Assembly: GCA_014685065.1 (NCBI GenBank)
Contig: GCA_014685065.1_4092.2
Strand: one strand, 5' to 3'
Source: a phage
DNA: 64,000 bases
The notes below the pieces were generated by a model, which saw nothing but the letters and a program-made list of their open reading frames with translations, made no database searches and was not told where the DNA came from. The position numbers were made by a program, and so were the translations under genes. Positions 42,651 to 60,546 of this stretch are shown here, piece after piece (the first letter of the stretch is position 1; every line of letters begins with the position of its first letter).

Positions 42651-42899
42651 TGTAGTAATTATACGCTTTTTCGGTGCTGAGTCAATAGCTAAAAACAAAA
42701 TAATTGAAAATAATTTAACGCGTTTAAACGGCCCGTAAAGCCCTGGTTAGCTGGTGGCGGTGCAAATGTATAGCTTAGGTGTATTAATGCGTTAGAAAGC
42801 GGCTGAGGCCGTTTTATGGTGTATAGTACTGATTCAGTACTGAAAGATAGTTCCCCTATATAGAAAGAAAACTATTTTAAAAGTATTTGTAGAAAGTAC

Positions 42900-42960
42900 T
42901 TGCAAAGTATTGGGAAAGGTGTAGAATGTTTTACATCGAGACGGGGGATACGCTCCCGAC
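42900..42960 (+). promoter_or_regulatory. PeSL-like module: promoter (TTGCAA ... TAGAAT) + leader stem-loop
   Basis: agtacttgcaaagta ... gtagaatgttttacatcgagacgggggatacgctcccg. Confidence 0.55.
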
Positions 42961-42984
42961 TCACTTTTAAAAGAGATTAAAACG

Positions 42985-43347
42985 ATGGCGACTCAAATCA
43001 ATACTATCATGCTTAACCTGGTTTCTTTCCGTGAAGAGATGAAAGATCTTCCCGCTGAGACTGTACGGATTCACATTGCAGCTTATCGGGAATTGATTGC
43101 AATGCTGCCGCTTAAGCGTGAACAGTACGCCGCTACTGCAATGCTGGACGCAATGATACATAAGATGATCCAGACTGATTTAACGATGGCTTATCAGTAC
43201 ATGGGCGAAATGTTTGCAGTGTATAGCAAGCCAGTACCAGGAATGGAAAGTACAGAAGTATTGCACGGCTTAAACTTAAAACAAGATGCATGGGATAATA
43301 TGCCTCGTTTCCTGGTATGGGCTGACAGCGGCAAGATTTACGAATAA
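42985..43347 (+). CDS. hypothetical protein
   Basis: first gene of GC-richer block; RBS AAGAG. Confidence 0.55.
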   Translation: MATQINTIMLNLVSFREEMKDLPAETVRIHIAAYRELIAMLPLKREQYAATAMLDAMIHKMIQTDLTMAYQYMGEMFAVYSKPVPGMESTEVLHGLNLKQDAWDNMPRFLVWADSGKIYE

Positions 43348-43361
43348 GTTTAATAAAGTAC

Positions 43362-43420
43362 TTGCAAACTAAGTTTAAAAGCGTATAATGTTTTACATCA
43401 GGTGGGGAATAGTTCCCCAC
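43362..43420 (+). promoter_or_regulatory. PeSL-like module: TTGCAA-16-TATAAT + stem-loop GTGGGGAATAGTTCCCCAC
   Basis: TTGCAA 43362-43367, TATAAT 43384-43389, hairpin 43402-43420. Confidence 0.65.
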
Positions 43421-43440
43421 TATATAAGAGGATTAAAAAA

Positions 43441-43680
43441 ATGGCTAAATCAAAAATGTTCTTAGGTCACAAAAACAAAACTCAATGGAATGTAAGCCTT
43501 TGGATTAATAACGACGAATCATTATACCGGTTGGCCCAGGACTTTATTGCCGCTAACACTAATCGTAATGATGCGGCCCGTCATATGATGCTATTTTTAG
43601 AACAGACTGGACAAGATAAAACACCGGACGGCTTTAAGTATAGCACTACTGCGATCCGTGCGGCGATGGTTGGAATGTAA
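43441..43680 (+). CDS. hypothetical protein
   Basis: ATG 43441 after GAGGA; track start upstream lies in the hairpin. Confidence 0.55.
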   Translation: MAKSKMFLGHKNKTQWNVSLWINNDESLYRLAQDFIAANTNRNDAARHMMLFLEQTGQDKTPDGFKYSTTAIRAAMVGM

Positions 43681-43762
43681 GAGAATAGATTAAAAGTACT
43701 ATTGCACGGTGATAGTACTTTATAATAGATTTCTTTTATACAACAACGATAGGGGTAACAGC

Positions 43763-44029
43763 ATGAATATTATATACTTTGCAACGCGTGAACTTGCTCG
43801 GATTGCCGCACGCCAGGACGGGGCGACGTTTAAAGATATGGGCGTACAATCTGAACGTGGTAAACGTTGGGCCGTAGTAAAGCAAAGTACAGCCCGATCA
43901 ATTCAGTACTGGCTATCTGCTTTAAAGCGTCCTGATAGTGTATCGCGTCGCGTGGTAGAAATAAAGCACGACCGCAAGGGCAACCGCGTTACTGTGTACA
44001 GTACTAAAAAGATTGCAGTACTTGAATAA
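43763..44029 (+). CDS. hypothetical protein, paralog of 55734 gene
   Basis: FATRELARIAARQDGATFKDMG ... HDRKGNRVTVYS shared with 55734..56129. Confidence 0.55.
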   Translation: MNIIYFATRELARIAARQDGATFKDMGVQSERGKRWAVVKQSTARSIQYWLSALKRPDSVSRRVVEIKHDRKGNRVTVYSTKKIAVLE

Positions 44030-44151
44030 AAGTACTTGACAGTTATCCGGCTTAGTGAGATAATACTTACAAGCCGGACACAAGGCGATAGCCCATAGGG
44101 TGCGGGAGTGTATCTATAGGAAAGTACTAAAAACTATTTTCAAAAAAGTAC

Positions 44152-44179
44152 TTGCAAACTATGTTTAAAGGCGTATAAT
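44152..44179 (+). promoter_or_regulatory. promoter TTGCAA ... TATAAT, upstream of structured element
   Basis: agtacttgcaaactatgtttaaaggcgtataatg. Confidence 0.55.
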
Positions 44180-44180
44180 G

Positions 44181-44262
44181 TTTTACATCAGGACGGGGAA
44201 TGAAATAAGTAACTCCCTGTTAAGTAGTCCAGGAGTAAGACTTACGAAAAACTCCCCTGATA
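44181..44262 (+). ncRNA. structured RNA element, copy A (nested hairpins) between two promoters
   Basis: about 93 percent identical to 54513-54592; stem ACGGGGA/TCCCTGT has G-U where copy B has G-C. Confidence 0.35.
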
Positions 44263-44269
44263 AAATAGT

Positions 44270-44297
44270 TTGACAAAGATTTATAAAAGCGTATAAT
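44270..44297 (+). promoter_or_regulatory. promoter TTGACA-16-TATAAT
   Basis: tttgacaaagatttataaaagcgtataat. Confidence 0.55.
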
Positions 44298-44329
44298 ACT
44301 TACATCAACTAATGAATGAGGGTTACAAA

Positions 44330-44941
44330 ATGAAAACTATCACTACTACTACTTTTGTTATGGCTTTTTCTGAACTGAACGCAGAACAACAAACGGCGGC
44401 TATCGAACTGGTTCGGGATCGGGAACGTGCAAGTGAGGATAATTTCTTTGCTGAGTCAGTACTGGAATACTATAAAGAAACAGTACTGCCAGAATACGGC
44501 ATAGATGAAGCTGAATTGCAATACAGTGGTTTTTGGTCGCAAGGTGACGGTGCATCAATCAGTACTGACCACGTTGACGCTGAGAAGTTTTTACGCAAGG
44601 TTAAGGCGTTAACTAAGTATCGCACTATCCGTCACCTGTTGAACGAAGATGATTTAGAAATGAGTGTAGAACGTTCCCAATCGCGTTATGCACACGAAAA
44701 CACGGTAGGCGGTTGCGTTGATACTCGCTACACTGATTTAACTGTAAAACAGGCTGCATTAGCTGAGGATCTGGAAAACTTACTGACTGATACTATCCGA
44801 GAATTATCTTGTAAGCTGTACCGTGATTTAGAAAATGCTTATGAAGACCAGTTTACTACTGAAAACATTGTAGCACTGATTGAGGGTAACGAATATCAAT
44901 TTAATGTTATCGATGGTGTAGTAGAATCTATCGCATATTAA
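44330..44941 (+). CDS. hypothetical protein
   Basis: ATG 44330 after GAGGG. Confidence 0.55.
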   Translation: MKTITTTTFVMAFSELNAEQQTAAIELVRDRERASEDNFFAESVLEYYKETVLPEYGIDEAELQYSGFWSQGDGASISTDHVDAEKFLRKVKALTKYRTIRHLLNEDDLEMSVERSQSRYAHENTVGGCVDTRYTDLTVKQAALAEDLENLLTDTIRELSCKLYRDLENAYEDQFTTENIVALIEGNEYQFNVIDGVVESIAY

Positions 44942-44999: not shown

Positions 45000-45236
45000 A
45001 TGATCGAACAAATCAAAACTACAACGCCAAACGTAACGGGTACAGTATCACACTTCATTGGTGACGATTCGCGGGGCGTTCCTTATTGTGCAGTACATGT
45101 AAACCAAAATGGCGACTACTGGCTAACGGTTTACGGTTCTTATTCTTTCGGGCGTAGTGCACACCAAAAGATCCTGGATAAAGTACAGCCAACGGGTAAA
45201 AATATCACCGCTGAGATGTTTTATAAAAAGCACTAA
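45000..45236 (+). CDS. hypothetical protein
   Basis: ATG 45000 after AGGAG; preceded by hairpin GGCGGGGAATGGTTCCCGCC. Confidence 0.5.
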   Translation: MIEQIKTTTPNVTGTVSHFIGDDSRGVPYCAVHVNQNGDYWLTVYGSYSFGRSAHQKILDKVQPTGKNITAEMFYKKH

Positions 45237-45243
45237 AAAGTAC

Positions 45244-45302
45244 TTGCAAAGTAATTAGATTAACGTATAATACTTTATATCGAGAGCGGGAATAGTTCCC
45301 GC
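45244..45302 (+). promoter_or_regulatory. PeSL-like module
   Basis: TTGCAA 45244-45249, TATAAT 45266-45271, hairpin GCGGGAATAGTTCCCGC 45286-45302. Confidence 0.65.
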
Positions 45303-45321
45303 CTTTAATGAGGATTATCTA

Positions 45322-45606
45322 ATGAGCAAAGTAATTAATAGTAAAGTACTAACTAAAACTTTATCTATAACTGAGTGCACCGATGGTTTTTGGCTGTACG
45401 ATGAAACGCGTGGCATGAATTTAGCTATGCAGGAGAAAACTGCTGATGCGGCATATCTTAAAGCACTGGAATACTACCAGAAGCGTTTAAAGGAAGTAGA
45501 AAACGATTATAATAACCTGAAAGCGAAAGTAGATCATTTTGTCGGTCAATTCGTTGACGATGACGAGGACGGGCACTACTGCGACCGTTGCGGATCTTAC
45601 AATTGA
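45322..45606 (+). CDS. hypothetical protein
   Basis: RBS GAGGA; 94 aa. Confidence 0.55.
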   Translation: MSKVINSKVLTKTLSITECTDGFWLYDETRGMNLAMQEKTADAAYLKALEYYQKRLKEVENDYNNLKAKVDHFVGQFVDDDEDGHYCDRCGSYN

Positions 45607-45623: not shown

Positions 45624-45827
45624 ATGAGTGATTTAATTGAACGTATCAAAGAGCTTGAAGAAAAAGAATTGCAGTTGATCGGGTTACGGAATAAAGTATT
45701 CCATGATTTAGGTGGCTTCATTAATGCCTGGGATAGTGGCGATCCTGATGCGTTACCTGCTAACCGCCAGGCGATGATCAATGATGTGCGTGGTGTCTTT
45801 GATTATGTTTTAAAGCAATTAAATTAA
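45624..45827 (+). CDS. hypothetical protein
   Basis: ATG 45624 after GAGGA; leader duplicated from upstream gene. Confidence 0.5.
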   Translation: MSDLIERIKELEEKELQLIGLRNKVFHDLGGFINAWDSGDPDALPANRQAMINDVRGVFDYVLKQLN

Positions 45828-45834
45828 AAAAGTA

Positions 45835-45895
45835 CTTGCAATTAGTTTTTAGTACTGTATAATAGTTTACATCAAGGGGGGAAATGGTTCTCCCC
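45835..45895 (+). promoter_or_regulatory. PeSL-like module
   Basis: TTGCAA 45835-45840, TGTATAAT, hairpin GGGGGGAAATGGTTCTCCCC. Confidence 0.65.
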
Positions 45896-45914
45896 ACTAA
45901 TAAGGAGTTTTACA

Positions 45915-46136
45915 ATGGCTAATATCACTACTCTTTCCCAGCTTGAAGCACTGGTTAAATCTATGCGGGCACATGTTGACAGTATCGGCGTAGAAGATCC
46001 GGCTGTATGTTTTTGTGACGAAATAAATGATGATACGCTCGTCATTGCAGAAGTACAAGACGTTTCTAACTATTCATCGCGTTACACTTGCGGAGTATCA
46101 AAGAAAGGTGATTTCTGTTTATATCTTACTAAGTAA
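45915..46136 (+). CDS. hypothetical protein
   Basis: RBS AAGGAG. Confidence 0.55.
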   Translation: MANITTLSQLEALVKSMRAHVDSIGVEDPAVCFCDEINDDTLVIAEVQDVSNYSSRYTCGVSKKGDFCLYLTK

Positions 46137-46304
46137 TACAGAGGGGATCAATTGATCCCCTTTATATTTTTTGTACTGAATCATTTAATAGACGGATCTA
46201 TGCACCCTGTGGGTTAGTGACTATCTCGTCTTTATGTAAGTATTATGCCAGTACTGGATGCAGTTGTCAAGACTTTTTTTTCAAATACTTTTATATCAAA
46301 GTAC

Positions 46305-46360
46305 TTGATAATAGTTTTTAAATGCGTATAATGTTTTACATCTAATCGGGAATACTCCCT
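46305..46360 (+). promoter_or_regulatory. PeSL-like module (TTGATA ... TATAAT, weak hairpin)
   Basis: agtacttgataatagtttttaaatgcgtataatg. Confidence 0.5.
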
Positions 46361-46382
46361 AGTACTAACAAAGGATATACAA

Positions 46383-46682
46383 ATGAAAACTGCAATCATC
46401 GCCCTGGCTTTATCTGTTTCCTCTTTCGCTGTTAACGCTTCCGTTGATGTACCGAAAGAAAAATTCATTCAGTGCACTGTTGCAATGACTAACGAGGAAA
46501 CGGCTGAGATCGTTACCAAATCCCTGGAACTGGCCCCTGCAATGTTTGCTAATGGCCCGTACCATGAAGAAGATGATCAGGGTAGCACGACCATCTATTA
46601 CGATGCAAAAAGTAAACGCGGTTCTGTCACTGTAATGGATACAGAGAAAGTTACATTCACTGGCGTAATTAATTGTTTATAA
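46383..46682 (+). CDS. secreted hypothetical protein
   Basis: signal peptide MKTAIIALALSVSSFAVNA. Confidence 0.55.
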   Translation: MKTAIIALALSVSSFAVNASVDVPKEKFIQCTVAMTNEETAEIVTKSLELAPAMFANGPYHEEDDQGSTTIYYDAKSKRGSVTVMDTEKVTFTGVINCL

Positions 46683-46695: not shown

Positions 46696-46728
46696 CACTA
46701 GCCCACTATAAGCAGTGGGCTTTTTTGT
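46696..46728 (+). terminator. intrinsic terminator
   Basis: AGCCCACT-ataagc-AGTGGGCT + T6. Confidence 0.7.
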
Positions 46729-47424: not shown

Positions 47425-47452
47425 CTAGCCCACTTATACAGTGGGCTTTTTT
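47425..47452 (+). terminator. intrinsic terminator
   Basis: AGCCCACT-tatac-AGTGGGCT + T6. Confidence 0.7.
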
Positions 47453-47606
47453 GTGTCTATAGTATTCCATGCCGTCAGCACCTCATAGAATCGATTCTAA
47501 CGCATTAAACTGATTATCTGATGCATCGCCCTAGCTGGTGGAGTTAAGGCCGTTAGAATGCGATTGAGAGTGTTAAAAGTATTTTACAAAAAGTAATAAA
47601 AAGTAC

Positions 47607-47634
47607 TTGCACGATTCAGAGATTAGCGTATAAT
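47607..47634 (+). promoter_or_regulatory. promoter TTGCAC ... TATAAT
   Basis: agtacttgcacgattcagagattagcgtataatg. Confidence 0.5.
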
Positions 47635-47679
47635 GTTTTACATCAAGGCGAAACACCTTAACTAACTGAGGATATAAAG

Positions 47680-47832
47680 ATGAATACTTATGAACTGGAT
47701 TGTTTCACTATGCAAGTAATGTTAGTATGCAGTAAAAAAGAATGGTCATCAAAGGAATTTAAAGCAGTTATTGCATGTTCAAAAAAAGGTAAGTCTATTA
47801 TTGAAACGGCAGCTATCGTAGATAGTCTTTAA
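47680..47832 (+). CDS. small hypothetical protein (50 aa)
   Basis: hand-called: RBS GAGGA, ATG 47680, stop 47830. Confidence 0.35.
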   Translation: MNTYELDCFTMQVMLVCSKKEWSSKEFKAVIACSKKGKSIIETAAIVDSL

Positions 47833-47840
47833 AAAATAGT

Positions 47841-47868
47841 TTGACAATAGTTTTAAGTACTGACATAA
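47841..47868 (+). promoter_or_regulatory. promoter TTGACA ... CATAAT
   Basis: tttgacaatagttttaagtactgacataat. Confidence 0.5.
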
Positions 47869-47902
47869 TACATACATCAACTACTGAATAGGAATCAAAA
47901 CA

Positions 47903-48130
47903 ATGGCTATCGTAATCACTCGCGTATCTGGTACTACTGGCAATTCTTCTACTGTTGCTGTAATTACTAATAAGAAAGGTGCGGAATTACATTTTGCAAT
48001 GAATACCTGGGCGGTGAATGAGTTCGGTCAGTGGGCTAGTGTAGAATACATTGAAACCTATCAAGTGCCAACCATTAGCTTAACGGATCTCGGCGTAGAT
48101 CGTATCTTATGCCTGGATGAATTAAACTAA
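47903..48130 (+). CDS. hypothetical protein
   Basis: RBS AGGAA. Confidence 0.5.
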   Translation: MAIVITRVSGTTGNSSTVAVITNKKGAELHFAMNTWAVNEFGQWASVEYIETYQVPTISLTDLGVDRILCLDELN

Positions 48131-48137
48131 AAAGTAC

Positions 48138-48197
48138 TTGCAAAGTAAATCGGATAAAGTATAATACATTACATCAAGGGGAGAAATGATTCTCCCC
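48138..48197 (+). promoter_or_regulatory. PeSL-like module
   Basis: TTGCAA 48138-48143, TATAAT 48160-48165, hairpin GGGGAGAAATGATTCTCCCC 48178-48197. Confidence 0.65.
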
Positions 48198-48215
48198 ACT
48201 AAGAGGAAACTAAAA

Positions 48216-48359
48216 ATGAAAACTTGTCAATGTGGTAAAAAATCTATCACTGGTTTGAAACGGGGCGTTGCTCTTTGTCAGTATCACTATAACGCTCAAG
48301 TATGGGGTAAAGAGTGGGCCGACCAGGTGGAAGCAATAAAGAAAGCAAAAAGTAAGTAA
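48216..48359 (+). CDS. small Cys-containing protein (47 aa), possible zinc ribbon
   Basis: hand-called: RBS AGAGGA, ATG 48216; CQCG ... C..H pattern. Confidence 0.35.
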   Translation: MKTCQCGKKSITGLKRGVALCQYHYNAQVWGKEWADQVEAIKKAKSK

Positions 48360-48443
48360 AATTATTATCACAGTACTATTGACATAGATTGATAGTACTG
48401 GCATAATAGATTTTATCAAGACAACTAAGAGGAAACAAAAATG
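48349..48443 (+). repeat. about 95-bp direct repeat, copy 1 (gene end + promoter + leader)
   Basis: near-identical to 48649-48737, including AGTACTATTGACATAG(A/T)TTGATAGTACTGGCATAAT. Confidence 0.6.
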
Positions 48444-54592: not shown

Positions 54593-54599
54593 AAATAGT

Positions 54600-54628
54600 T
54601 TGACAATACCAAGTAAACGAGTATAATA
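54600..54628 (+). promoter_or_regulatory. promoter TTGACA-17-TATAAT
   Basis: TTGACA 54600-54605, TATAAT 54623-54628. Confidence 0.55.
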
Positions 54629-54657
54629 CTTACATCAACCACAAAGAGGAATACAAA

Positions 54658-54858
54658 ATGAAACATTTTACTTTCGGTGTAGTAGGCTTTACAGTATCCA
54701 GCGGCGTTTATAAATCAGAACGCGGTGCTAAAAATGCAGCAAGTCGGGCGTATGGTTCACAGCGTGACTTACAGGTCGGTTATATTAGTAACATTAATAA
54801 CATGTTTATTCCTGTTTCACAGCGTAAAGCGGGTAACATGAAATGGGAAACAATTTGA
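54658..54858 (+). CDS. hypothetical protein
   Basis: RBS AGAGGAA. Confidence 0.5.
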   Translation: MKHFTFGVVGFTVSSGVYKSERGAKNAASRAYGSQRDLQVGYISNINNMFIPVSQRKAGNMKWETI

Positions 54859-54867
54859 TAAAATAGT

Positions 54868-54926
54868 TTGACAATAGTTTTTAGTACTGTATAATAGTTT
54901 ACATCAAGTGGGGAATAGTTCCCCAC
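54868..54926 (+). promoter_or_regulatory. PeSL-like module
   Basis: TTGACA 54868-54873, TATAAT 54890-54895, hairpin GTGGGGAATAGTTCCCCAC. Confidence 0.65.
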
Positions 54927-54947
54927 CTAACAAAGAGAGAAATTAAA

Positions 54948-55223
54948 ATGCGGATTCTACTGACAGCTAACGAAATCGAGCAAGTACTGACTACTAACCT
55001 GGAAGACTGGAAACGTGATGCAGATATCCAGGCGGTGCAATGGCTCAATGATAAGTTAACGCCGGATGATTTAAGTAAGATTGTAGATCCACAATTCTAT
55101 GAAGATATTCACGACACGGCTTTAAGCGTCGAGGATGTACTTGATAAGCACTACATTGATATTGATTTGCAGGTTTACGGTCGTAAAAACTTTATCACTA
55201 TTCACGACATTTATAATAATTAA
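54948..55223 (+). CDS. acidic hypothetical protein
   Basis: RBS AGAGAGA. Confidence 0.55.
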   Translation: MRILLTANEIEQVLTTNLEDWKRDADIQAVQWLNDKLTPDDLSKIVDPQFYEDIHDTALSVEDVLDKHYIDIDLQVYGRKNFITIHDIYNN

Positions 55224-55226
55224 GTA

Positions 55227-55286
55227 TTGACAAAGTATCTTAGTACTGTATAATAGTTTACATCAAGGCAGGGGAATGGTTCCCCT
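55227..55286 (+). promoter_or_regulatory. PeSL-like module
   Basis: TTGACA 55227-55232, TATAAT 55249-55254, hairpin AGGGGAATGGTTCCCCT. Confidence 0.65.
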
Positions 55287-55310
55287 CCTAACTAAAAGAG
55301 AGAAATTAAA

Positions 55311-55634
55311 ATGACTATGATCCTTACCCAGAAAGTAGAAATGAAAATTGTAACTTCCTTTGACATTAAAGTTAATCGGTGGACTGATAGCCACGGCAAT
55401 ACTTACCACTCATGCTACGTGTCTGCATTGATTGGTGACCGCTGGGAAGACCTGGGACATGAAACCTTTACTTACGGTTACGGTACACAAGGCGAATACA
55501 CGGGCTTGGAGATCATTAAAGAAACTGTAATAGGTTTCAACCCGAAAGAGAAAGTACTACACAGAATTGAGGATGAGATCAACAAAGAAATTACAGTTCG
55601 TTACTACGATGTAAAACGTAAGAAAGACATGTAA
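55311..55634 (+). CDS. hypothetical protein, paralog of 48735 gene
   Basis: GNTYHS ... YGYG ... VKRKKDM. Confidence 0.55.
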   Translation: MTMILTQKVEMKIVTSFDIKVNRWTDSHGNTYHSCYVSALIGDRWEDLGHETFTYGYGTQGEYTGLEIIKETVIGFNPKEKVLHRIEDEINKEITVRYYDVKRKKDM

Positions 55635-55656
55635 TAGAATCCATTTAAAGTACTAT

Positions 55657-55685
55657 TTGACATTGCCCAGATAGTACTTTATAAT
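55657..55685 (+). promoter_or_regulatory. promoter TTGACA-17-TATAAT flanked by AGTACT
   Basis: agtactatttgacattgcccagatagtactttataat. Confidence 0.55.
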
Positions 55686-55733
55686 AGACTCTAACTTGTA
55701 GTACTAATTAACTTAACTAATAGGATGTACACC

Positions 55734-56129
55734 ATGATTACTAAATTCTTCGCTACCCGTGAACAAGCTCGCATCGTTGCTCGTGAAGAAGGTGAAACAT
55801 TTAAAGACATGGGCAAAGATGCACCGAAAGGACAACGCTGGGCGGTACAGTTCAAAGAGATCTCTGATATTGTGAATTCACCTGAGCCTGTACTTACTGA
55901 AGCAGAACTGAAGAAAGCTCAAGAACTGGCTGAAGTACTGAACGCTCAAGATGACTTCTTGGAAGGTTCTGATATTGAAGTTACAGTTAACGCAAATGCA
56001 TGGACTCACGCGGATCACCTGGCAAACCTTAAGCGTCCAAGTGAACTGATTCGTAACCAGAAAGAGATCCGTCATGACCGTAAAGGAAACCGTGTAACAG
56101 TATACAGTAAACGCCGCCAGGTTATCTAA
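55734..56129 (+). CDS. hypothetical protein, paralog of 43763 gene with insertion
   Basis: FATREQARIVAREEGETFKDMG ... RHDRKGNRVTVYS. Confidence 0.55.
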   Translation: MITKFFATREQARIVAREEGETFKDMGKDAPKGQRWAVQFKEISDIVNSPEPVLTEAELKKAQELAEVLNAQDDFLEGSDIEVTVNANAWTHADHLANLKRPSELIRNQKEIRHDRKGNRVTVYSKRRQVI

Positions 56130-56150: not shown

Positions 56151-56176
56151 ACGGCGGGAATAGTTCCCGCCTTTTT
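56151..56176 (+). terminator. intrinsic terminator
   Basis: GGCGGGAATAGTTCCCGCC + T6. Confidence 0.7.
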
Positions 56177-56192
56177 TATAGGATAAACTAAA

Positions 56193-56447
56193 ATGATGAA
56201 GGTACAACTATCTAAAGATAATATCTTGCGGGTACACTATAAAGCACCACAGAGAATCATCACAAAGGCCGTACAGCTTGCTAATGAGTTTATTAATGGT
56301 AGTCTATTACCCAGGAAGTTAAGCAACGGGAAACTACGTGTTATCGATGTAGACACTAACAATAGAATAGTAATTGAGAGTACTGGAAAAATTAATCTAT
56401 ATGAACACCAACAATACAATAAAAAAATAAAACTAATATCACGTTGA
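56193..56447 (+). CDS. hypothetical protein
   Basis: RBS AGGA. Confidence 0.5.
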   Translation: MMKVQLSKDNILRVHYKAPQRIITKAVQLANEFINGSLLPRKLSNGKLRVIDVDTNNRIVIESTGKINLYEHQQYNKKIKLISR

Positions 56448-56471
56448 CAGTACTCAATTGTTTTAGTATTA
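56444..56471 (+). promoter_or_regulatory. promoter TTGACAGTACTCAA ... TATTAT (homologous to 56722)
   Basis: two genes with unrelated products share this promoter/leader. Confidence 0.5.
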
Positions 56472-56503
56472 TGTATCTATACCAACACAGAGAGAGAAAC
56501 AAA

Positions 56504-56722
56504 ATGAAATTATCTAAAATCGAAAAGAAAACTATTGATGAAGCAGTGAAGCACGGTTATACCTTTCGTAATGATTCACACTTCACCAGTTTTCAACAGG
56601 GAAACCGTACCATCAAAAAACTCATTGATAAAGGTTTACTCACTAAGGTTGATAACGGGAACGGTGTAGAATATCAACCGACAGAAGACGCATTATCACT
56701 AAAGAAATATTCTATTATCTAA
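56504..56722 (+). CDS. hypothetical protein
   Basis: ATG 56504 after AGAGAGA; track N-terminus is a leader read-through. Confidence 0.5.
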   Translation: MKLSKIEKKTIDEAVKHGYTFRNDSHFTSFQQGNRTIKKLIDKGLLTKVDNGNGVEYQPTEDALSLKKYSII

Positions 56723-56750
56723 TTGACAGTACTCAAATGTTTTAGTACTA
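56722..56750 (+). promoter_or_regulatory. promoter TTGACAGTACTCAA ... TACTAT
   Basis: homologous to 56444. Confidence 0.5.
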
Positions 56751-56779
56751 TGTACGCATACCAACACGGGGAAAACAAA

Positions 56780-57638: not shown

Positions 57639-57652
57639 AAAAGATTAAAAAA

Positions 57653-57685
57653 GGGATTGACTCCAGTCAGTCCCTTTGCTATTAT
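57653..57685 (+). terminator. bifunctional terminator/promoter module
   Basis: GGGATTGACTCCAGTCAGTCCC + TTTGCTATTAT. Confidence 0.65.
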
Positions 57686-57779
57686 ATATTCATTGAGAGA
57701 TAACTCACTGACCCATAGGGTGCGGAAGTGTATCTATTATATAAGTATTCAGTACTGAAAACTATTTGATAAAAAGTAC

Positions 57780-57840
57780 TTGCAAACTATCTTAATGAGC
57801 GTATAATGTTTTATATCGAGAGGGGGAAATGGTTCTCCCT
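57780..57840 (+). promoter_or_regulatory. PeSL-like module
   Basis: TTGCAA 57780-57785, TATAAT 57802-57807, hairpin AGGGGGAAATGGTTCTCCCT. Confidence 0.65.
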
Positions 57841-57862
57841 GGTACTAAAAGGAATCAAAACG

Positions 57863-58084
57863 ATGGCTACTATGACCTGCGTTCACGCTTCAAATCTTCT
57901 GAATGATGCAGCATTTAAAGCAGGTGAAGAATATCAATGCTATCGGGATGAAAATAAAAAAGTTTTCGTCGTTGATGCTAACGGTTTCCATATTGAATTG
58001 CAATCCGGCTTCACTGGTTTAAATGGTAAATCAGTATGGGGCGTTAATGATGATAATGGTCTTTATCACTTTATCCGTAATTAA
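57863..58084 (+). CDS. hypothetical protein
   Basis: ATG 57863 after AAGGAA. Confidence 0.5.
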   Translation: MATMTCVHASNLLNDAAFKAGEEYQCYRDENKKVFVVDANGFHIELQSGFTGLNGKSVWGVNDDNGLYHFIRN

Positions 58085-58087
58085 GTA

Positions 58088-58146
58088 TTGACAAAGTATA
58101 TCAGTACTGTATAATAGTTTACATCAAGGGGAGAATAGTTCTCCCC
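58088..58146 (+). promoter_or_regulatory. PeSL-like module
   Basis: TTGACA 58088-58093, TATAAT 58110-58115, hairpin GGGGAGAATAGTTCTCCCC. Confidence 0.65.
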
Positions 58147-58168
58147 ACCAATAAAAGGAAACAAAATT

Positions 58169-58441
58169 ATGTCTAGCTACTCCGCTACTATGATCATTAA
58201 AGATATGAACGGTAATCCTACTTCTGCTGGTGGATCATTTGGAAACATTAACTTAGATGGTCGGTTATCAATTGAATCAGCCATCAATGCAGCGAAAGAA
58301 GTTTTTAAGAATGAATGCACTGTAAGTAAGCTGGATTATATGGGATTCGCTATCGAGAAAACTAATCGTTTTGTGAACTACAAAAATCCACTGATGATTG
58401 ATACTAACCTGAAAGCTAACGAAGTGGAATACTTATTATGA
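58169..58441 (+). CDS. hypothetical protein
   Basis: RBS AAAGGAAA. Confidence 0.55.
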   Translation: MSSYSATMIIKDMNGNPTSAGGSFGNINLDGRLSIESAINAAKEVFKNECTVSKLDYMGFAIEKTNRFVNYKNPLMIDTNLKANEVEYLL

Positions 58442-58629
58442 CAGTTGAAGAAGTTAAAAAAGTACTGGCAGTACTACGCTATCATAATCATTGTAAGGTG
58501 AAGAATGATCCTGATTATGTTGATTCATCCCTGGAGGAAGACACCTTAAACGCGATAAGCTATATGCAAACATTAGCAAAGCGTATGACCGAAAAGAATA
58601 GGCCGGACTATATCGGAAATAAAATTTAA
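58438..58629 (+). CDS. hypothetical protein
   Basis: ATGA overlap with upstream gene. Confidence 0.5.
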   Translation: MTVEEVKKVLAVLRYHNHCKVKNDPDYVDSSLEEDTLNAISYMQTLAKRMTEKNRPDYIGNKI

Positions 58630-58635
58630 AAAGTA

Positions 58636-58698
58636 CTTGCATTGTAGTTAGATTAACGTATAATGTTTTATATCGAGAGGGGGAAATGGTTTCCCCTC
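58636..58698 (+). promoter_or_regulatory. PeSL-like module
   Basis: TTGCAT, TATAAT 58659-58664, hairpin GAGGGGGAAATGGTTTCCCCTC. Confidence 0.65.
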
Positions 58699-58716
58699 AA
58701 GTCCAGGAGATACACC

Positions 58717-58980
58717 ATGAACACTATCGAAATCACTATCAATGCACACGTATACGACAACGTAGTACTGCAAACTACTATGACCGCTAATGATACCAGT
58801 ACTTTGCGGAATATCGTTATTAGTTCAGTATGTGCCGCTATCGGTGATGTTGCCCTTGAAAATGCAAAACACGTCAACGATGCCTTTACGATGTGCAAAC
58901 GTGATAACTCAAAACATATCATCTGCGAAGGTTACGGCGGTGTAGAATACAATGTTTATATGAAAAAAGTACTTGCATAA
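58717..58980 (+). CDS. hypothetical protein
   Basis: ATG 58717 after AGGAG; last codons overlap next promoter. Confidence 0.5.
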   Translation: MNTIEITINAHVYDNVVLQTTMTANDTSTLRNIVISSVCAAIGDVALENAKHVNDAFTMCKRDNSKHIICEGYGGVEYNVYMKKVLA

Positions 58981-59029
58981 TAACTAAAACAAAGTATAAT
59001 GTTTTGCATAGGGGGAGATATCCTCCCCC
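58973..59029 (+). promoter_or_regulatory. PeSL-like module
   Basis: TTGCAT 58973-58978, TATAAT 58995-59000, hairpin GGGGGAGATATCCTCCCCC. Confidence 0.65.
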
Positions 59030-59048
59030 ACTAATAAGGAGTACTAAA

Positions 59049-59273
59049 ATGGCTAACTTTGATGAACTGATGCGGGAAGTAGCTACCCTGGCAGAAGAGA
59101 AGAAATCATTCGATTCTATATATAACACCGCTTACAGTGATTCAGTACTGGCATGTACTCAGGATCAAAAAGATGAACTGATCGCCACCTATCATGAAGC
59201 ATGGAAGTATTACCGCCAATGGGAGAAAGAAGAAAGCGAGTCTACCATCAACGGCATCAATAATCTAATCTAA
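59049..59273 (+). CDS. hypothetical protein
   Basis: ATG 59049 after AAGGAG. Confidence 0.5.
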   Translation: MANFDELMREVATLAEEKKSFDSIYNTAYSDSVLACTQDQKDELIATYHEAWKYYRQWEKEESESTINGINNLI

Positions 59274-59291
59274 AGTTTTATTTCAGTACTA

Positions 59292-59320
59292 TTGACAATG
59301 CGTGATAGTACTGATGTGAT
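59292..59320 (+). promoter_or_regulatory. promoter-like TTGACA flanked by AGTACT
   Basis: agtactattgacaatgcgtgatagtactgatgtgataac. Confidence 0.4.
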
Positions 59321-59347
59321 AACTTTACTAACTAAAGGGGAAACATA

Positions 59348-59605
59348 ATGGAACAGTTCACACAATATCGGGTAAATCCTCAAGCTATGGCCTACGTAGA
59401 AGACCATAAAACGTTACCAGTACTAACACCAATTAAAGGCCATATCTATCGTGCTATGCAGTGGAATAACGCCTATAATGGCTATAAAGCGGTATCCGCT
59501 GCAATGTACTTAGGGGATGGCGAATGGTTTGATCCAAATAATCCTGGTGCACTCGATAGTACTGAAAAAATGACATGGGCCGACTATATCGAAGATATCT
59601 CATAA
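59348..59605 (+). CDS. hypothetical protein
   Basis: RBS AAGGGGAAA. Confidence 0.5.
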   Translation: MEQFTQYRVNPQAMAYVEDHKTLPVLTPIKGHIYRAMQWNNAYNGYKAVSAAMYLGDGEWFDPNNPGALDSTEKMTWADYIEDIS

Positions 59606-59612
59606 AAACTAT

Positions 59613-59673
59613 TTGACAGTACTACAAGATAATGTATAATGTTTTACATAGAGCGGGGGAATAGTTCTCCCGC
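59613..59673 (+). promoter_or_regulatory. PeSL-like module
   Basis: TTGACA 59613-59618, TATAAT 59635-59640, hairpin GCGGGGGAATAGTTCTCCCGC. Confidence 0.65.
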
Positions 59674-59693
59674 ACCTTTAGGAGTAAAACATT

Positions 59694-59894
59694 ATGTCAA
59701 TCGCTAACGAATTGGTTGCAGTACTGAATGAAGCAAAAGCCAACTGCATCGATGTACAGATAAAAGAGCTTGGCAATGGCTTGATCGGCTGTACTTGTTC
59801 CGTGCAAACGGCTACCGATTATCGGGAAGTGGAATCACTCGAATCACTGGTACGGTATATTAAAATCCTGGTAGAAGATTGGAGAATCATCTAA
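59694..59894 (+). CDS. hypothetical protein
   Basis: RBS AGGAG. Confidence 0.5.
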   Translation: MSIANELVAVLNEAKANCIDVQIKELGNGLIGCTCSVQTATDYREVESLESLVRYIKILVEDWRII

Positions 59895-59913
59895 CAAAAA
59901 AGAATAAAAAAAA

Positions 59914-59946
59914 GGGATTGACTCCGGTCAGTCCCTTTGCTATTAT
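59914..59946 (+). terminator. bifunctional terminator/promoter module
   Basis: AAAGGGATTGACTCCGGTCAGTCCCTTTGCTATTAT. Confidence 0.65.
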
Positions 59947-60069
59947 ATACGCATAGACAAAAACTAGCCCACAGGGTGCAGAGAAGTATCTGTAAGATAG
60001 TTAATAACGGTGAGTAACTATCTGCTGGTGGATGTAATTCCAGTACTCAAAACTATTTCAAAAAAAGTA

Positions 60070-60099
60070 TTGACAAAGTATATCAGTACTGCGATAATG
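60070..60099 (+). promoter_or_regulatory. promoter TTGACA ... GCGATAAT
   Basis: tattgacaaagtatatcagtactgcgataat. Confidence 0.5.
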
Positions 60100-60151
60100 T
60101 ATCTCGTAGGGCGGCGATGGTGCGACGGCCCACAAAGTTAGGAGATTCAAA

Positions 60152-60478
60152 ATGAGTACTTCAATCGCTATCGTTAAAGCTTTCATCCGTACCAATTTCG
60201 ACCGCATTACTGTTGATGGTAATGATCGGGAAGTAGAATACTCTTTCATTGTTGCACAAACCGCAAACGGTGCACGCTATATCTTAAACGATAGTGAAGC
60301 TAACCACTACTTCTATAATAAAGGATTACACTACATCCCTAGCGAAGTAGTCTACAGTAAGATGAATAAGCTGGTAGACAAGATTAACGCAAAGGGTACT
60401 ATAGATTTACAGTACTGGACCGAAACAGATCCAGAATACGGCTCGTATCGTTACCTGAATCCAGGAATTAAAATGTAA
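60152..60478 (+). CDS. hypothetical protein
   Basis: RBS AGGAGA. Confidence 0.55.
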   Translation: MSTSIAIVKAFIRTNFDRITVDGNDREVEYSFIVAQTANGARYILNDSEANHYFYNKGLHYIPSEVVYSKMNKLVDKINAKGTIDLQYWTETDPEYGSYRYLNPGIKM

Positions 60479-60484
60479 AAAGTA

Positions 60485-60546
60485 CTTGCATAGTACTTAG
60501 AATCAAGTATAATGTTTTACATAGAGAGGGGGAAATGGTTCTCCCT
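60485..60546 (+). promoter_or_regulatory. PeSL-like module
   Basis: TTGCAT 60485-60490, TATAAT 60508-60513, hairpin GAGGGGGAAATGGTTCTCCCTC. Confidence 0.65.

Follow-up and report, generated by a model that had tools for sequence, protein, structure and literature searches.

The window, by which we mean the whole 64,000-nucleotide stretch of DNA that was analysed, comes from an Asteriusvirus (121Q/PBECO4-like) jumbo coliphage and not from a T4-type phage. An earlier note had treated its 43-61 kb block (42896-60546) as a unit. The block is real, but it sits within a larger direct terminal repeat (DTR), placed by alignment to the DTRs of relatives:

41305-61399, + strand, direct terminal repeat of 20,095 bp

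This segment matches positions 1-20993 of fEgEco12 over its full length, and also positions 1-21525 of vB_Ec-M-J, annotated in that record as 'Direct Terminal Repeats'; in JP4, window position 61399 is joined straight onto 41305. A 20,993-bp DTR has been shown for Asteriusvirus fEgEco12 by PhageTerm and restriction digests (PMC13070987). The DTR holds about 50 tiny genes, many with their own near-consensus host promoter, and the cassette genes are mostly ORFans, one or a few per cassette, with a median of 74 aa. Chi sites form an oriented array in the DTR.

Intergenic + strand promoters were scanned for as TTG(A/C/T)(A/C/T)N, a 16-18 nt spacer and a TATAAT-like hexamer, which gave 44 units in 41305-61399, 42 of them in 42896-60546; a stricter scan of the remaining ~43 kb of the window gave about 14. 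Modules are far more abundant in the block than expected by chance: it has 15 copies of AGTACTTGCA, where the whole window would be expected to have 0.18. The promoter/stem-loop units reported earlier are thus real, the 42 being near-consensus sigma-70 units, while the claim of more than 25 on one plan is slightly too high for units with the full plan (20-23) and too low for promoters. The cassette begins with an A-rich stretch, usually containing the stop codon of the upstream gene, and an AGTACT box that directly adjoins a TTGCAA or TTGACA -35. After a 16-17 nt spacer, often with a second AGTACT touching the -10, come TATAAT and a predicted CA start region; about half of the units then have an 8-bp hairpin of G-run/C-run type starting roughly 5 nt into the predicted transcript, and an A-rich, unstructured Shine-Dalgarno (SD) region precedes the gene or genes. 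AGTACT is about 12-fold over-represented; it holds fixed module positions, yet it is also found throughout coding DNA genome-wide and not just at cassette borders.

The canonical hairpin followed by an RBS and a small gene is present in 20 of the 42 units, a weak version in one (46305), and a long-loop hairpin within a leader of ~150 nt in two (44152, 54482). Thirteen promoters lead directly to a gene with no hairpin, and six drive a non-coding CCCAYAGGGTGC unit. From -10 to ATG, units that have a hairpin measure 48-57 nt and hairpin-less ones 28-50 nt. No transcription studies on this phage group were found in the literature searched. We infer from sequence that these promoters are active, where their transcription starts and that they act early. 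The hairpin-bearing modules are:

42885-42984, +, promoter (TTGCAA-16-TAGAAT) and 5' hairpin (42938-42962); gene 42985-43347
43347-43440, +, promoter (TTGCAA-16-TATAAT) and 5' hairpin (43401-43421); gene 43441-43680
45229-45321, +, promoter and 5' hairpin (core about 45283-45303); gene 45322-45606
45821-45914, +, promoter and 5' hairpin (45876-45895); gene 45915-46136
46290-46382, +, promoter (TTGATA-16-TATAAT) with weak hairpin; signal-peptide gene 46383-46682
48123-48215, +, promoter and 5' hairpin (48178-48197); gene 48216-48359
49835-49927, +, promoter and 5' hairpin (49886-49913); -35 within the last codons of gene 49653-49859
50432-50525, +, promoter and 5' hairpin (50485-50509); gene 50526-50867
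50867-50962, +, promoter and 5' hairpin (50922-50940), left copy of a pair; gene 50963-51145
51139-51229, +, right copy, partner of 50867-50962, hairpin 51194-51212; gene 51230-51448
52985-53075, +, promoter and 5' hairpin (53040-53058); AGTACT box holds the stop of GNAT gene 52640-52996
53607-53698, +, promoter and 5' hairpin (53662-53681); gene 53699-53911
54853-54947, +, promoter and 5' hairpin (54908-54926); gene 54948-55223
55212-55310, +, promoter and 5' hairpin (55266-55289); gene 55311-55634
57765-57862, +, promoter and 5' hairpin (57821-57840); gene 57863-58084
58073-58168, +, promoter and 5' hairpin (58128-58146); genes 58169-58441 and 58438-58629
58622-58716, +, promoter and 5' hairpin (58677-58698); gene 58717-58980
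58958-59048, +, promoter and 5' hairpin (59011-59029); -35 is the last codons of gene 58717-58980
59598-59693, +, promoter and 5' hairpin (59653-59673); gene 59694-59894
60055-60151, +, promoter (TTGACA-17-GATAAT) with divergent hairpin (60106-60133); gene 60152-60478
60471-60567, +, promoter and 5' hairpin (60522-60550); gene 60568-60969

That the -35 supplies the end of the upstream gene, as had been proposed for 49859, 52996 and 58980, holds at the first and last of these and only approximately at 52996, where the stop lies 3 nt before the -35; gene 56193-56447 is a further ORF running into a -35, with its end at 56447. Double modules and modules without a hairpin are:

44137-44329, +, double unit: promoter 44152 with long-loop hairpin leader, promoter 44270, gene 44330-44941
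47592-47902, +, two hairpin-less promoter modules (47607, 47841); genes 47680-47832 and 47903-48130
48364-48440, +, extended -10 module (CAGTACTATTGACA-17-CATAAT), no hairpin, left copy of a pair; gene 48441-48653
48658-48734, +, promoter module, right copy, partner of 48364-48440; gene 48735-49079
51453-51540, +, extended -10 module, no hairpin; gene 51541-51684
52093-52639, +, promoters 52108 and 52583, no hairpin; genes 52173-52319 and 52319-52576, start of the GNAT gene
54467-54657, +, double unit: promoter 54482 with long-loop hairpin leader, promoter 54600, gene 54658-54858
55642-55733, +, promoter module (TTGACA-17-TATAAT, AGTACT boxes), no hairpin; gene 55734-56129
56429-56779, +, two homologous hairpin-less leaders (56444, 56723) on either side of gene 56504-56722

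The two double units are paralogues whose promoter modules (44152 and 54482) are 84% identical, and gene 52319-52576 encodes a DksA/TraR zinc finger. Near-identical copies do flank single genes as had been described, with 97% identity between 50882-50940 and 51154-51212 and 91% between 48349-48443 and 48649-48737 (91-96% for 48364-48440 against 48658-48734). Unrelated genes do share homologous leaders, those at 56444 and 56723 being 85% identical with no mutual blastp match between the genes. The non-coding units and terminators are:

44021-44109, +, promoter 44036 with non-coding CCCATAGGGTGC unit
46700-46727, +, canonical terminator AGCCCACTATAAGCAGTGGGCTTTTTTG; second copy at 47427-47453
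50299-50387, +, composite terminator/promoter, hairpin 50307-50334 enclosing -35 TTGACT, then TATTAT; non-coding CCCACAGGGTGC unit
51977-52065, +, promoter 51992 with non-coding CCCATAGGGTGC unit
54338-54426, +, composite terminator/promoter (hairpin 54346-54373) and non-coding unit
56153-56177, +, canonical intrinsic terminator, hairpin GGCGGGAATAGTTCCCGCC of the cassette-hairpin family, no promoter, TTTTTT after
57642-57730, +, composite terminator/promoter (hairpin 57650-57677) and non-coding unit
59903-59991, +, composite terminator/promoter (hairpin 59911-59938) and non-coding unit

In the four composite elements the hairpin overlaps the -35 and T-rich sequence follows; G17 homologues of elements such as 50299-50387 are annotated as ARNOLD terminators. 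The promoter-driven non-coding units are a repeat family. Chi sites at 54434 and 60024 each lie 3' of a composite element with its non-coding unit.

Synteny between the window DTR and eight related genomes was compared from BLAST HSPs, which gave 61 unique breakpoints. The earlier note had set breakpoints at modules as a test of its reading, and gene order does vary in the eight relatives with indel or replacement edges at modules. The modules are sites where the gene content of relatives differs: modules cover 22% of the sequence and contain 61% of the breakpoints, a share that none of 5000 random sets attains, and 74% of the breakpoints are <=10 bp from one; conserved modules attract HSP ends also where the neighbouring genes have only diverged, a bias that touches 'replacement' events and not the 15 overlap-type indels. 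At those 15 sites the HSPs overlap by 18-106 bp in the genome without the cassette, the signature of module-length direct repeats. Breakpoints occur at 28 of 33 module-bearing gene junctions and at 4 of 19 module-less ones (Fisher p = 1.2e-5), a test confounded by spacer length because module-bearing junctions are the long intergenic spacers (80-320 bp, against 0-30 bp or overlapping genes at module-less junctions).

Additional cassettes are held by vB_Ec-M-J at 43347-43440 (236 bp; HSP overlap 80 bp), seven relatives at 46290-46382 (~272 bp; 44-bp overlap), six at 49835-49927 (~170 bp; 60-bp), WPEC3 at 50432-50525 (455 bp; 95-bp), five relatives at 55212-55310 (167 bp; 103-bp), four at 58073-58168 (~395 bp; 99-bp), 121Q at 60055-60151 (255 bp; 62-bp) and, at 51453-51540, by relatives with 198-240 bp. 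Just 3' of 44021-44109 the window has 84 bp and all eight relatives ~530 bp, and 45823-45829, in module 45821-45914, is a recurrent breakpoint. Conversely, gene 48216-48359 is missing in JP4 and SD-15_S21 (18-bp overlap), gene 54658-54858 in four relatives (55-bp overlap, junction within the leader), gene 56504-56722 in SD-15_S21 (72-bp overlap), gene 47680-47832 in five relatives (with 29 bp in place of the window's 242 bp), and the GNAT gene, flanked by modules 52583 and 53000, in G17 and SD-15_S21. A single module is retained where phAPEC6 lacks gene 48441-48653 (106-bp overlap) and where six relatives lack gene 50963-51145, with the junction in AAAACAAAATGGCT. In 121Q, which lacks gene 58717-58980, the single module is chimeric and changes from left to right copy within the -35/spacer; further junctions are in the leader or at the shared RBS-ATGGCT, in register, so that crossovers map within modules or at their 3' edge.

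We think it probable that the Asteriusvirus DTR of ~20.1 kb is an assembly of self-contained expression cassettes in which modules act as portable homology and the hairpin as a 5' stabiliser/insulator. Host sigma-70 RNA polymerase would fire the block promoters right after DNA entry, giving an early programme of host-takeover type. The ~90-100-bp modules would serve general homologous recombination, cassettes being deleted or duplicated when neighbouring modules exchange unequally and inserted or swapped, each complete with promoter and RBS, when co-infecting phages exchange DNA. The block could instead be an ordinary dense early-promoter array, in which breakpoints coincide with modules through purifying selection and alignment bias and not through recombination within modules, the survivors being rearrangements in long spacers that leave every gene a promoter. 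Selection against breaks within genes or overlapping gene pairs would alone enrich breakpoints in long spacers, and many events replace genes, with conserved modules around diverged or unrelated ones. At 53264|53614 a clean indel lacks a module to its left, and module-poor regions are plastic too; since window 20000-37650, without such modules, is also mosaic, modules are not required for plasticity. Nevertheless we judge this account improbable, as module-length overlaps at the 15 indel sites, near-identical modules flanking single genes that relatives lack, and the chimeric and RBS-ATGGCT junctions count against it, and in-register joins are not predicted by illegitimate joining plus selection. 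It is very unlikely that a dedicated site-specific system of integron or homing type, with the hairpin or the AGTACT boxes as its target, moves the cassettes. Site-specific recombination was left as a possibility by Comeau et al. (PMC4122927), AGTACT shows the positional regularity and excess given above, and cassettes are common to different phage families; however, crossovers are scattered over -35/spacer, leader and RBS-ATG rather than at one site, AGTACT extends well beyond cassette borders, and the 10 largest block proteins showed no domain of an integrase, recombinase or endonuclease. Given this last result the cassettes seem to serve homologous recombination as passive substrates; of the 'PeSL-like mobile regulatory cassettes' proposed earlier the likeness is supported and the mobility putative.

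The hairpin was analysed in 96 unique leaders, where the stem is mostly 8 bp and begins 13-15 nt 3' of the -10. It is kept as an RNA-strand structure, as is evident from covariation and strand-specific G·U pairs. Stem pair types covary (GC/CG, and GC/AT/TA); inner pairing is 97% against 86% after swapping arms between leaders, outer pairing 80% against 65% (0 of 1000 swaps reach the observed value in either case), and positions 0-6 contain 36 G·T wobbles against 2 A·C. The leaders are predicted to fold into a single 5' hairpin that leaves SD and AUG open. An operator in double-stranded DNA, centred at about +17 and bound by a dimeric phage repressor of early promoters, would account for the placement just 3' of the start, typical of roadblock operators, and for the fairly conserved GGGAA...TTCCC core. 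It is nonetheless highly improbable, for stem sequences differ with pairing kept, the loop varies in length and sequence, and the near absence of the mirror A·C indicates + strand RNA and not a DNA palindrome. The hairpin may have a terminator or attenuator role, because a published PeSL stem-loop without a U-tract terminated efficiently in a reporter: that of phi1, polyG/polyC with no obvious U-tract, cut lacZ as strongly as rrnB T1 (PMC2839356). Blocking upstream read-through, as in canonical PeSLs, would restrict each gene to its own promoter; the JSE example described below and the same-family hairpin with TTTTTT at 56153 also favour this. We hold it to be possible but rather unlikely, since the hairpin, being part of the transcript that its cassette makes, would attenuate the very gene it precedes, a T-rich tail is seen in only 1 of 24 structured leaders, and separate canonical terminators exist alongside the four composites, which fit a terminator-then-promoter logic better. 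Its position in the cassette's own leader and the lack of a U-tract lead us to infer that it acts as a 5' stabiliser or insulator, and not as a terminator, the role proposed for the PeSLs of T4-type phages; it would mainly shield the mRNA 5' end and insulate the translation-initiation region from upstream sequence, with termination left to the U-tract hairpins and the four composite hairpin-embedded promoters.

Twelve DTR genes recur in the Vequintavirinae (rV5-like) phage W70, from an unrelated family, at 65-92% amino-acid identity, in a ~6.5-kb block with gene order shuffled relative to the DTR, and eight of the 12 are also detectable by nucleotide (69-90% identity). W70 carries Asteriusvirus-type AGTACT/TATAAT modules 5' of two shared genes and one unshared gene, as well as a double unit of the 44137-44329 type. 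Matches of 80-90% to module 58073-58168 occur in rV5-like phages. Both these and RB49-like phages carry homologues of gene 60568-60969, those in RB49-like phages adjoining canonical PeSLs.

PeSLs lie 5' of ORFans and combine a sigma-70 consensus promoter with an A-rich stretch containing the stop codon of the upstream gene, a polyG-then-polyC stem-loop, SD and start codon (PMC2839356). The block anatomy agrees with this published description, as the earlier note had held, and a PeSL-like reading is supported. The upstream/-35 part of a canonical PeSL in JSE (RB49-like) is near-identical to that of the block modules (AAAAAGTAGTTGACA). Unlike the five published PeSL layouts, the block hairpin lies 3' of the expected start, inside its own mRNA leader, which weakens the terminator reading. 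The putative early host-takeover programme of the DTR resembles the SPO1 terminal-redundancy module. Modular shuffling by promoter/stem-loop units, known from T4-type phages, is here seen in a new phage group.

Megablast of the block at 42896–60546 against the phage collection matched about 200 records, the best of which were Escherichia jumbo myoviruses of the genus Asteriusvirus. Phage JP4 covered 91% of the block at 88.6% identity, phage 121Q covered 53% at 95% identity and most other records covered 28–60%, giving an overall range among relatives of 28–91%. Colinear BLAST chains placed positions 1 and 20993 of phage fEgEco12 at window positions 41305 and 61399; in that phage a repeat of 20,993 bp was determined by PhageTerm, with restriction digests in agreement (PMC13070987). 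The stretch 1–21525 of vB_Ec-M-J, annotated 'Direct Terminal Repeats', had ends identical to 41305 and 61399 in the BLAST chains, and in the JP4 record 61399 abuts 41305 directly. These end matches in three phages therefore identify the block as the body of a direct terminal repeat (DTR) spanning window 41305–61399, the location known for early blocks of the SPO1 and T5 type; the earlier note had not recognised the repeat.

Part of the terminal repeat is present as a tandem duplicate in the middle of the JP4 record (PQ330092; 300–4000 and 20414–24112, 20,114 bp apart), and the JP4 entry as deposited therefore represents a permuted assembly that contains the repeat junction internally. Directly after the DTR the architecture of the window changes abruptly. 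The 2.6 kb at 61467–64000 hold a run of overlapping or abutting genes of about 70 aa with ATGA-type junctions, several of them mutual paralogues, and contain neither a promoter nor a copy of the palindrome AGTACT.

A regular-expression scan for promoter-like units in intergenic sequence of the + strand called 44 in the DTR, 42 of them within 42896–60546, and a stricter scan called about 14 in the remaining 43 kb or so of the window. The existence of repeated promoter and hairpin units in the block, as described in the earlier note, is confirmed. We refer to the intergenic promoter unit of about 90–100 bp with its RBS as a module, and to a module with its small gene or genes as a cassette. The 42 units comprise 20 with a canonical G-run/C-run hairpin followed by an RBS and a gene, 13 without a hairpin, six with a conserved non-coding unit, one with a weak hairpin and two with a long-loop variant in a leader of about 150 nt. 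As predicted sigma-70 promoters most of them score 10–12 out of 12 with a spacer of 16–17 nt, and both TTGACA and TATAAT are perfect in 11. The −35 is preceded by an A-rich stretch, TAAAAAGTAC or AAAATAGT. In most units the stop codon of the upstream gene precedes the −35 by 3–23 nt, and in three it falls inside the hexamer. The −35 had been said to supply the last codons of the upstream gene at three places; this holds for the genes ending at 49859 and 58980, and also at 56447, but at 52996 the stop lies in an AGTACT box, 3 nt before the −35. Each module ends in a Shine-Dalgarno sequence (SD) and start codon, and the distance from the −10 to the ATG is strikingly regular, at 48–57 nt in the hairpin class and 28–50 nt in the other units. 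The decamer AGTACTTGCA has 15 copies in the block against 0.18 expected over the whole window, and a strict IUPAC pattern combining promoter and start region gave five matches.

The copies earlier described as near-identical were indeed 97% (50882–50940 and 51154–51212) and 91% identical (48349–48443 and 48649–48737). The leaders at 56444 and 56723, likewise proposed to be homologous in front of unrelated genes, share 85% identity, and the genes behind them have no detectable similarity. The last codons of upstream genes can also lie inside the repeated module, for example AAAGTAAGTAA before 48379 and 48673. ATGGCT (Met-Ala) opens 11 of the 53 DTR genes, and such starts include 43441, 45915, 46923, 47903, 48441, 48735, 50963, 51230, 52319, 57863 and 59049. 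A double-promoter unit is duplicated at 44137–44329 and 54467–54657, 10 kb apart, and is also found in the rV5-like phage W70 (Vequintavirinae; record L009, 4860–5040). Its first promoter drives a leader of about 100 nt that carries a long-loop hairpin (GACGGGGAAC...CTCCCCGTT) as well as a second element, GGAG...CTCCCC; the second promoter and the gene come directly after.

ORFans cluster in this variable region, where the 53 genes of the block have a median of 74 aa. Many are small genes with predicted strong host-type promoters and strong RBSs, as in SPO1- and T5-type early blocks. Two of the 10 largest block proteins gave Pfam matches above the curated cut-off, a DksA/TraR zinc finger and a GNAT domain, and the best PHROG matches of all 10 were of 'unknown function'; a kinase-like Pfam match among the block proteins fell below the curated cut-off. 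These three matches are hints only that the block genes may act in host takeover. Rfam at gathering thresholds and ARAGORN gave no match in the whole window, and a literature search found no transcriptome of any Asteriusvirus.

Hairpin statistics were drawn from 96 distinct leaders of the window and eight relatives by a loop-centred pair count, which replaced a MAFFT alignment of 56 leaders that had lost the stem register. Stable stem-loops with a polyG-then-polyC plan (20 canonical and three variant) have dG values of −9.5 to −16 kcal/mol, and the 5' arm is always G-rich and the 3' arm always C-rich. The stem is typically 8 bp long and starts 13–15 nt past the −10 hexamer, which, given the usual 7–8-nt discriminator and a conserved CA, would place it about 5 nt into the transcript. 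Stem pairs covary, with GC 76 / CG 14 at one position, GC 62 / AT 17 / TA 6 at the next and GC 38 / AT 20 / CG 6 at the one after. Pairing reaches 97% at inner and 80% at outer positions; with arms exchanged between leaders it drops to 86% and 65%, and 0 of 1000 such exchanges reached the observed values. The stems contain 36 G·T pairs versus two of the mirror A·C pairs; this asymmetry marks the hairpin as a structure of the + strand RNA and not as a DNA palindrome. Ten leaders folded singly each formed one 5' hairpin (−12.8 to −15.7 kcal/mol) with the SD and AUG unpaired.

Termination is one function that such a hairpin might serve. A T-rich tail, as expected of a canonical intrinsic terminator (hairpin and U-tract), follows only one of 24 structured leaders, and the canonical promoter-early stem-loops (PeSLs) of T4-type phages likewise lack it, as in the example from the RB49-like phage JSE. 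Since the hairpin lies inside the leader of its own cassette, a pure role as terminator of upstream transcription would be self-defeating, and its predicted position within its own transcript argues against one. A 5' stabiliser or insulator would fit better, by analogy with ompA-type 5' stem-loops. Emory, Bouvet and Belasco reportedly showed in 1992 that 5'-terminal stem-loops stabilise E. coli mRNAs, ompA among them. Common to both is a stable hairpin only a few nt from the start of the mRNA, with the ribosome-binding region behind it left open; the leaders here differ in the approximately 5 unpaired nt predicted before the stem. In one of the compared records (L006, at about 17683) the leader orthologous to window 58128–58146 has an inverted loop, GGGGAGAA-CTA-TTCTCCCC versus GGGGAGAA-TAG-TTCTCCCC, which is the signature of a strand-switch or hairpin-mediated inversion in the DNA.

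Canonical terminators, composite elements and non-coding units were located as follows.

Terminators, composite elements and non-coding units (window coordinates)
46700, 47427, 56153: canonical terminators (hairpin and U-tract); 56153 is a member of the leader-hairpin family followed by TTTTTT
50307, 54346, 57650, 59911: composite elements, in which the hairpin holds the −35, and T-rich sequence and the −10 come next
44036–44115, 50307–50400, 51992–52075, 54346–54430, 57650–57740, 59911–59995, + strand: promoter-driven non-coding CCCAYAGGGTGC units
46286–46190, 42486–42395, − strand: promoter-driven non-coding CCCAYAGGGTGC units
42701–42600 (− strand), 42504–42600 (+ strand): diverged copies of CCCAYAGGGTGC units

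The four composite elements also possess the U-tract, and their homologues in G17 are annotated as ARNOLD terminators. With the hairpin over the −35, they conform to strict PeSL logic. The CCCAYAGGGTGC units have in common CAT(A/T)GAGA, a small covarying hairpin, the invariant CCCAYAGGGTGC and GTATCT. All eight strict copies are in the DTR, several of them near its left end, where the relatives have no annotated genes, and 49 distinct versions were collected from the window and eight relatives. The units have no Rfam match, and RNAalifold returned only a 4-pair CCC/GGG mini-hairpin without compensatory changes. An upstream hairpin (GAG/CTC, GACG/CGTC, AGTC/GACT, CGC/GCG or GCC/GGC) was recognized by eye only, and therefore we make no claim of an sRNA. 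The unit may be a site for protein binding or a small RNA, such as a promoter-proximal antitermination element.

The DTRs of eight relatives (JP4, 121Q, vB_Ec-M-J, G17, phAPEC6, fEgEco12, WPEC3 and Salmonella phage SD-15_S21) were compared through chained blastn HSPs. Among 61 unique breakpoints in the block, 61% fall in modules, which make up 22% of the sequence (0 of 5000 random sets reach this), and 74% lie no more than 10 bp from a module, bearing in mind that HSP ends are drawn toward conserved modules. Junctions with a module have breakpoints in at least one relative in 28 of 33 cases versus 4 of 19 for junctions without one (Fisher p = 1.2e-5), a test confounded by spacer length. More specific evidence comes from 15 distinct indel sites with a single module in one genome and module-gene-module in the other: the flanking alignments overlap by 18–106 bp in the genome without the cassette, and the other has 165–455 bp extra. 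Such module-bounded indels and replacements among close relatives are consistent with recombination between modules. The breakpoints and junctions therefore speak against the situation that would have told against the earlier note, namely an unchanged gene order with no breaks at the modules; the eight relatives display the opposite.

In the alignments the junctions are in register. At the site of gene 58717–58980, the single module of 121Q corresponds to the left copy through AAAAAGTACTTGCATTGTA and to the right copy after it, and is therefore a chimera. The junction at gene 50963–51145 falls within AAAACAAAATGGCT, and in 121Q exactly in the shared RBS-ATGGCT, so that module homology reaches the first codons. 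It falls in the leader at gene 54658–54858, and at gene 48441–48653 the copies are too similar for it to be placed. The clean indel 53264|53614 is missing a module on one side.

Other routes to this pattern were weighed against recombination between modules. An integron-like or site-specific system would bring a dedicated recombinase and a single crossover point; junctions are instead scattered along the module, and a domain search of the 10 largest block proteins gave no recombinase. The word 'mobile' in the earlier note is therefore better taken to mean portable homology for general recombination. Module similarity is flat with distance (Spearman about 0), and neighbouring modules resemble each other only slightly more than random pairs do (251 of 5000 permutations); therefore local gene conversion is not a general feature, and just two adjacent pairs are near-identical. 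The module-poor region 20000–37650 of the window, used as a control, is also mosaic and highly variable; in relatives it carries homing endonucleases and genes with RCC1 repeats ('chromosome condensation regulator'). For that reason no unique plasticity is claimed for the DTR.

Phages G17 and Sharanji are 99.6% identical to the window over 20000–34765 but only about 87–91% identical to it, with many indels, in the DTR. The DTR is closest to 121Q at 95–97%, and the genome of the window is a mosaic.

Over the window (1–64000) AGTACT is the most over-represented hexamer, with 264 occurrences against 22.4 ± 5.2 expected, or about 12-fold. Coding as well as non-coding sequence contains it, with a density of 6.2 per kb in the DTR and 3.2 per kb elsewhere in the window; CAGTACTG is the most frequent octamer, and a literature search for it returned nothing relevant. 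Two places in the promoters are fixed, one abutting the −35 (16 units) and one abutting the −10 (17 units), and the spacing has no helical periodicity beyond the 20–24-bp promoter pairs. The palindrome is possibly a protein-binding or modification site. Chi (GCTGGTGG) is present 14 times in the window against 0.63 expected, and ten of these sites are in the DTR.

Chi sites in the DTR (window coordinates)
41903, 42750, 47534, 51706, 53169, 54434, 56818, 58226, 60024, + strand: Chi
41891, − strand: Chi, approximately 590 bp from the left terminus

The strand bias recurs in all eight relatives, with 8–11 sites on the + strand versus 0–2 on the − strand. Under the orientation rule for Chi, sites oriented as in the DTR would engage RecBCD entering from either end of the genome. 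The oriented array is suggestive of end protection or of RecA-driven recombination from repeat to repeat.

Sharing of modules and genes extends beyond the genus. The module at 58060–58172 gave matches of 75–90% over 57–91 nt in rV5-like and in other Rak2-like jumbo phages. A block of about 6.5 kb in W70 contains homologues of 12 DTR genes in changed order, at 65–92% amino-acid identity; eight of the 12 are also detectable by nucleotide identity (69–90%). Asteriusvirus-type AGTACT/TATAAT modules stand before two shared genes and one unshared gene of W70, and its other cassettes have a related native module composed of AAAAAGTAGTTGACA, a TAAATT-like −10, CACATCAGG and a G/C hairpin. The adjacent 19 kb of W70 showed no more sharing except for the tail of one shared gene. 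AGTACT occurs eight times in the shared 10 kb of W70 and not at all in the adjacent 19.3 kb, a distribution that hints at an Asteriusvirus-like donor of the shared cassettes. RB49-like T4 phages encode homologues of gene 60568–60969 (36% identity), and the JSE homologue is preceded by a canonical PeSL, AAAAAGTAGTTGACA-N17-TAAGAT with GGGGGG...CCCCC over the −10. From W70 and JSE together it follows that the design of the module, and part of its sequence, is common to three coliphage lineages. Within IMG/VR the exact −10-plus-hairpin pattern was found in 121Q itself only. The looser promoter AAAGTACTTGCAW-N16-TATAAT is multi-copy in IMG/VR contigs (among L014–L068) whose lengths equal those of other Rak2-like jumbo phages, at 358,663 bp (GAP32-sized), 378,379 bp (CBB-sized) and 354,378 bp (fHe-Yen9-04-sized), and has seven copies in the uncultivated 108.9-kb contig IMGVR_UViG_3300007747_000009.

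Descriptions of PeSL-type cassettes have until now been limited to T4-type phages, and a literature search found no paper describing these cassettes in Asteriusvirus. The present data extend them in two ways, as the design structures an entire jumbo-phage terminal repeat of 20 kb and the cassette genes recur, reordered, in an rV5-like phage at 65–92% amino-acid identity. Both results suggest standardised regulatory modules as a general currency in the exchange of small early ('host-takeover', anti-defence-type) genes among virulent coliphages. Because of the cassette block, DTR divergence is large between otherwise close Asteriusvirus isolates, a variability relevant to phage-therapy candidates of the genus. 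As easily tested material the block also offers some 40 predicted sigma-70 promoters of high strength, together with about 20 natural leaders that carry a 5' hairpin. A more ambitious reading, which we consider rather unlikely, is that the Asteriusvirus DTR is a dedicated, recombinase-free gene-capture platform. ORFan cassettes from a pool common to unrelated coliphage families (Asteriusvirus, rV5-like Vequintavirinae and RB49-like T4) would dock through the universal homology of standard promoter-hairpin-RBS modules, two DTR copies per genome and nine oriented Chi sites would raise exchange, and AGTACT boxes would be a phage-specific layer of promoter recognition or regulation.

In the pre-early region of T5, small early genes with strong sigma-70 promoters lie in a direct terminal repeat of about 10 kb that enters the cell first. 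Small genes with strong sigma-70 promoters (predicted here) in a terminal repeat are thus shared with T5; its two-step DNA transfer is not part of the likeness. For SPO1, a terminal-repeat cluster of small genes with strong host-sigma promoters and RBSs and early expression is outlined in a 1998 paper, as cited in PMC6873191. On that outline, both have some 25–50 mostly small genes in the terminal repeat, with a strong host-sigma promoter (predicted here) and RBS per gene or short operon. SPO1 differs in its Bacillus host and its family, Herelleviridae, no homology to it was detected, a takeover function here is putative, and the SPO1 outline, as far as it goes, gives the promoters no role in shuffling. 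In the Rak2-like phage CBB, 18 RpoD-like promoters with UP-like elements were predicted genome-wide, three of them in a 22-kb terminal repeat (PMC5259590). CBB belongs to the same jumbo super-group and shares the A-rich element before sigma-70-type promoters concentrated in front of short hypothetical genes; a hairpin and a gene-shuffling role are not described for it (PMC5259590).

The closest likeness is to the PeSLs, which were defined by Arbiol et al. 2010 as sigma-70-like early promoters with AT-rich upstream sequence and a polyG/polyC stem-loop, after which come an SD and a start codon (PMC2839356). In hyperplastic regions they form clusters ahead of ORFans; most indels that separate phi1 from RB49 have them as borders, and they acted as terminators in a reporter and formed mini-circles (PMC2839356). 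Comeau et al. 2014 extended them to other T4-likes (PMC4122927), and the phages concerned are RB49/phi1, T4/PST and KVP40/nt-1 (PMC2839356; PMC4122927). The sequence-level and comparative features of PeSLs are all present here, in support of the earlier PeSL-like reading: an intergenic module of about 100 bp, an A-rich stretch with a stop codon, the sigma-70 consensus, a polyG-then-polyC stem-loop, SD and ATG, clustering before ORFans in variable regions, and module-bounded indels. Even the upstream/−35 sequence is nearly the same, AAAAAGTAGTTGACA in JSE and AAAAAGTACTTGCAA here, with AAAAAGTAGTTGACA itself at 46781. The main difference is that the hairpin here lies past the predicted transcription start, in the leader, whereas PeSL hairpins occupy the space between the −35 and −10, overlap these elements or come just ahead of the start; its position is unlike any of the five published layouts. 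The host genome is that of an Asteriusvirus jumbo phage rather than of one of the Straboviridae, the array fills a long DTR, AGTACT boxes flank the −35 and −10, about one third of the promoters lack a hairpin, and cassettes are shared across families with rV5-like phages. Taken on their sequence, the cassettes of the block are supported as PeSL-like, but with the hairpin placed differently and the array set in a terminal repeat.
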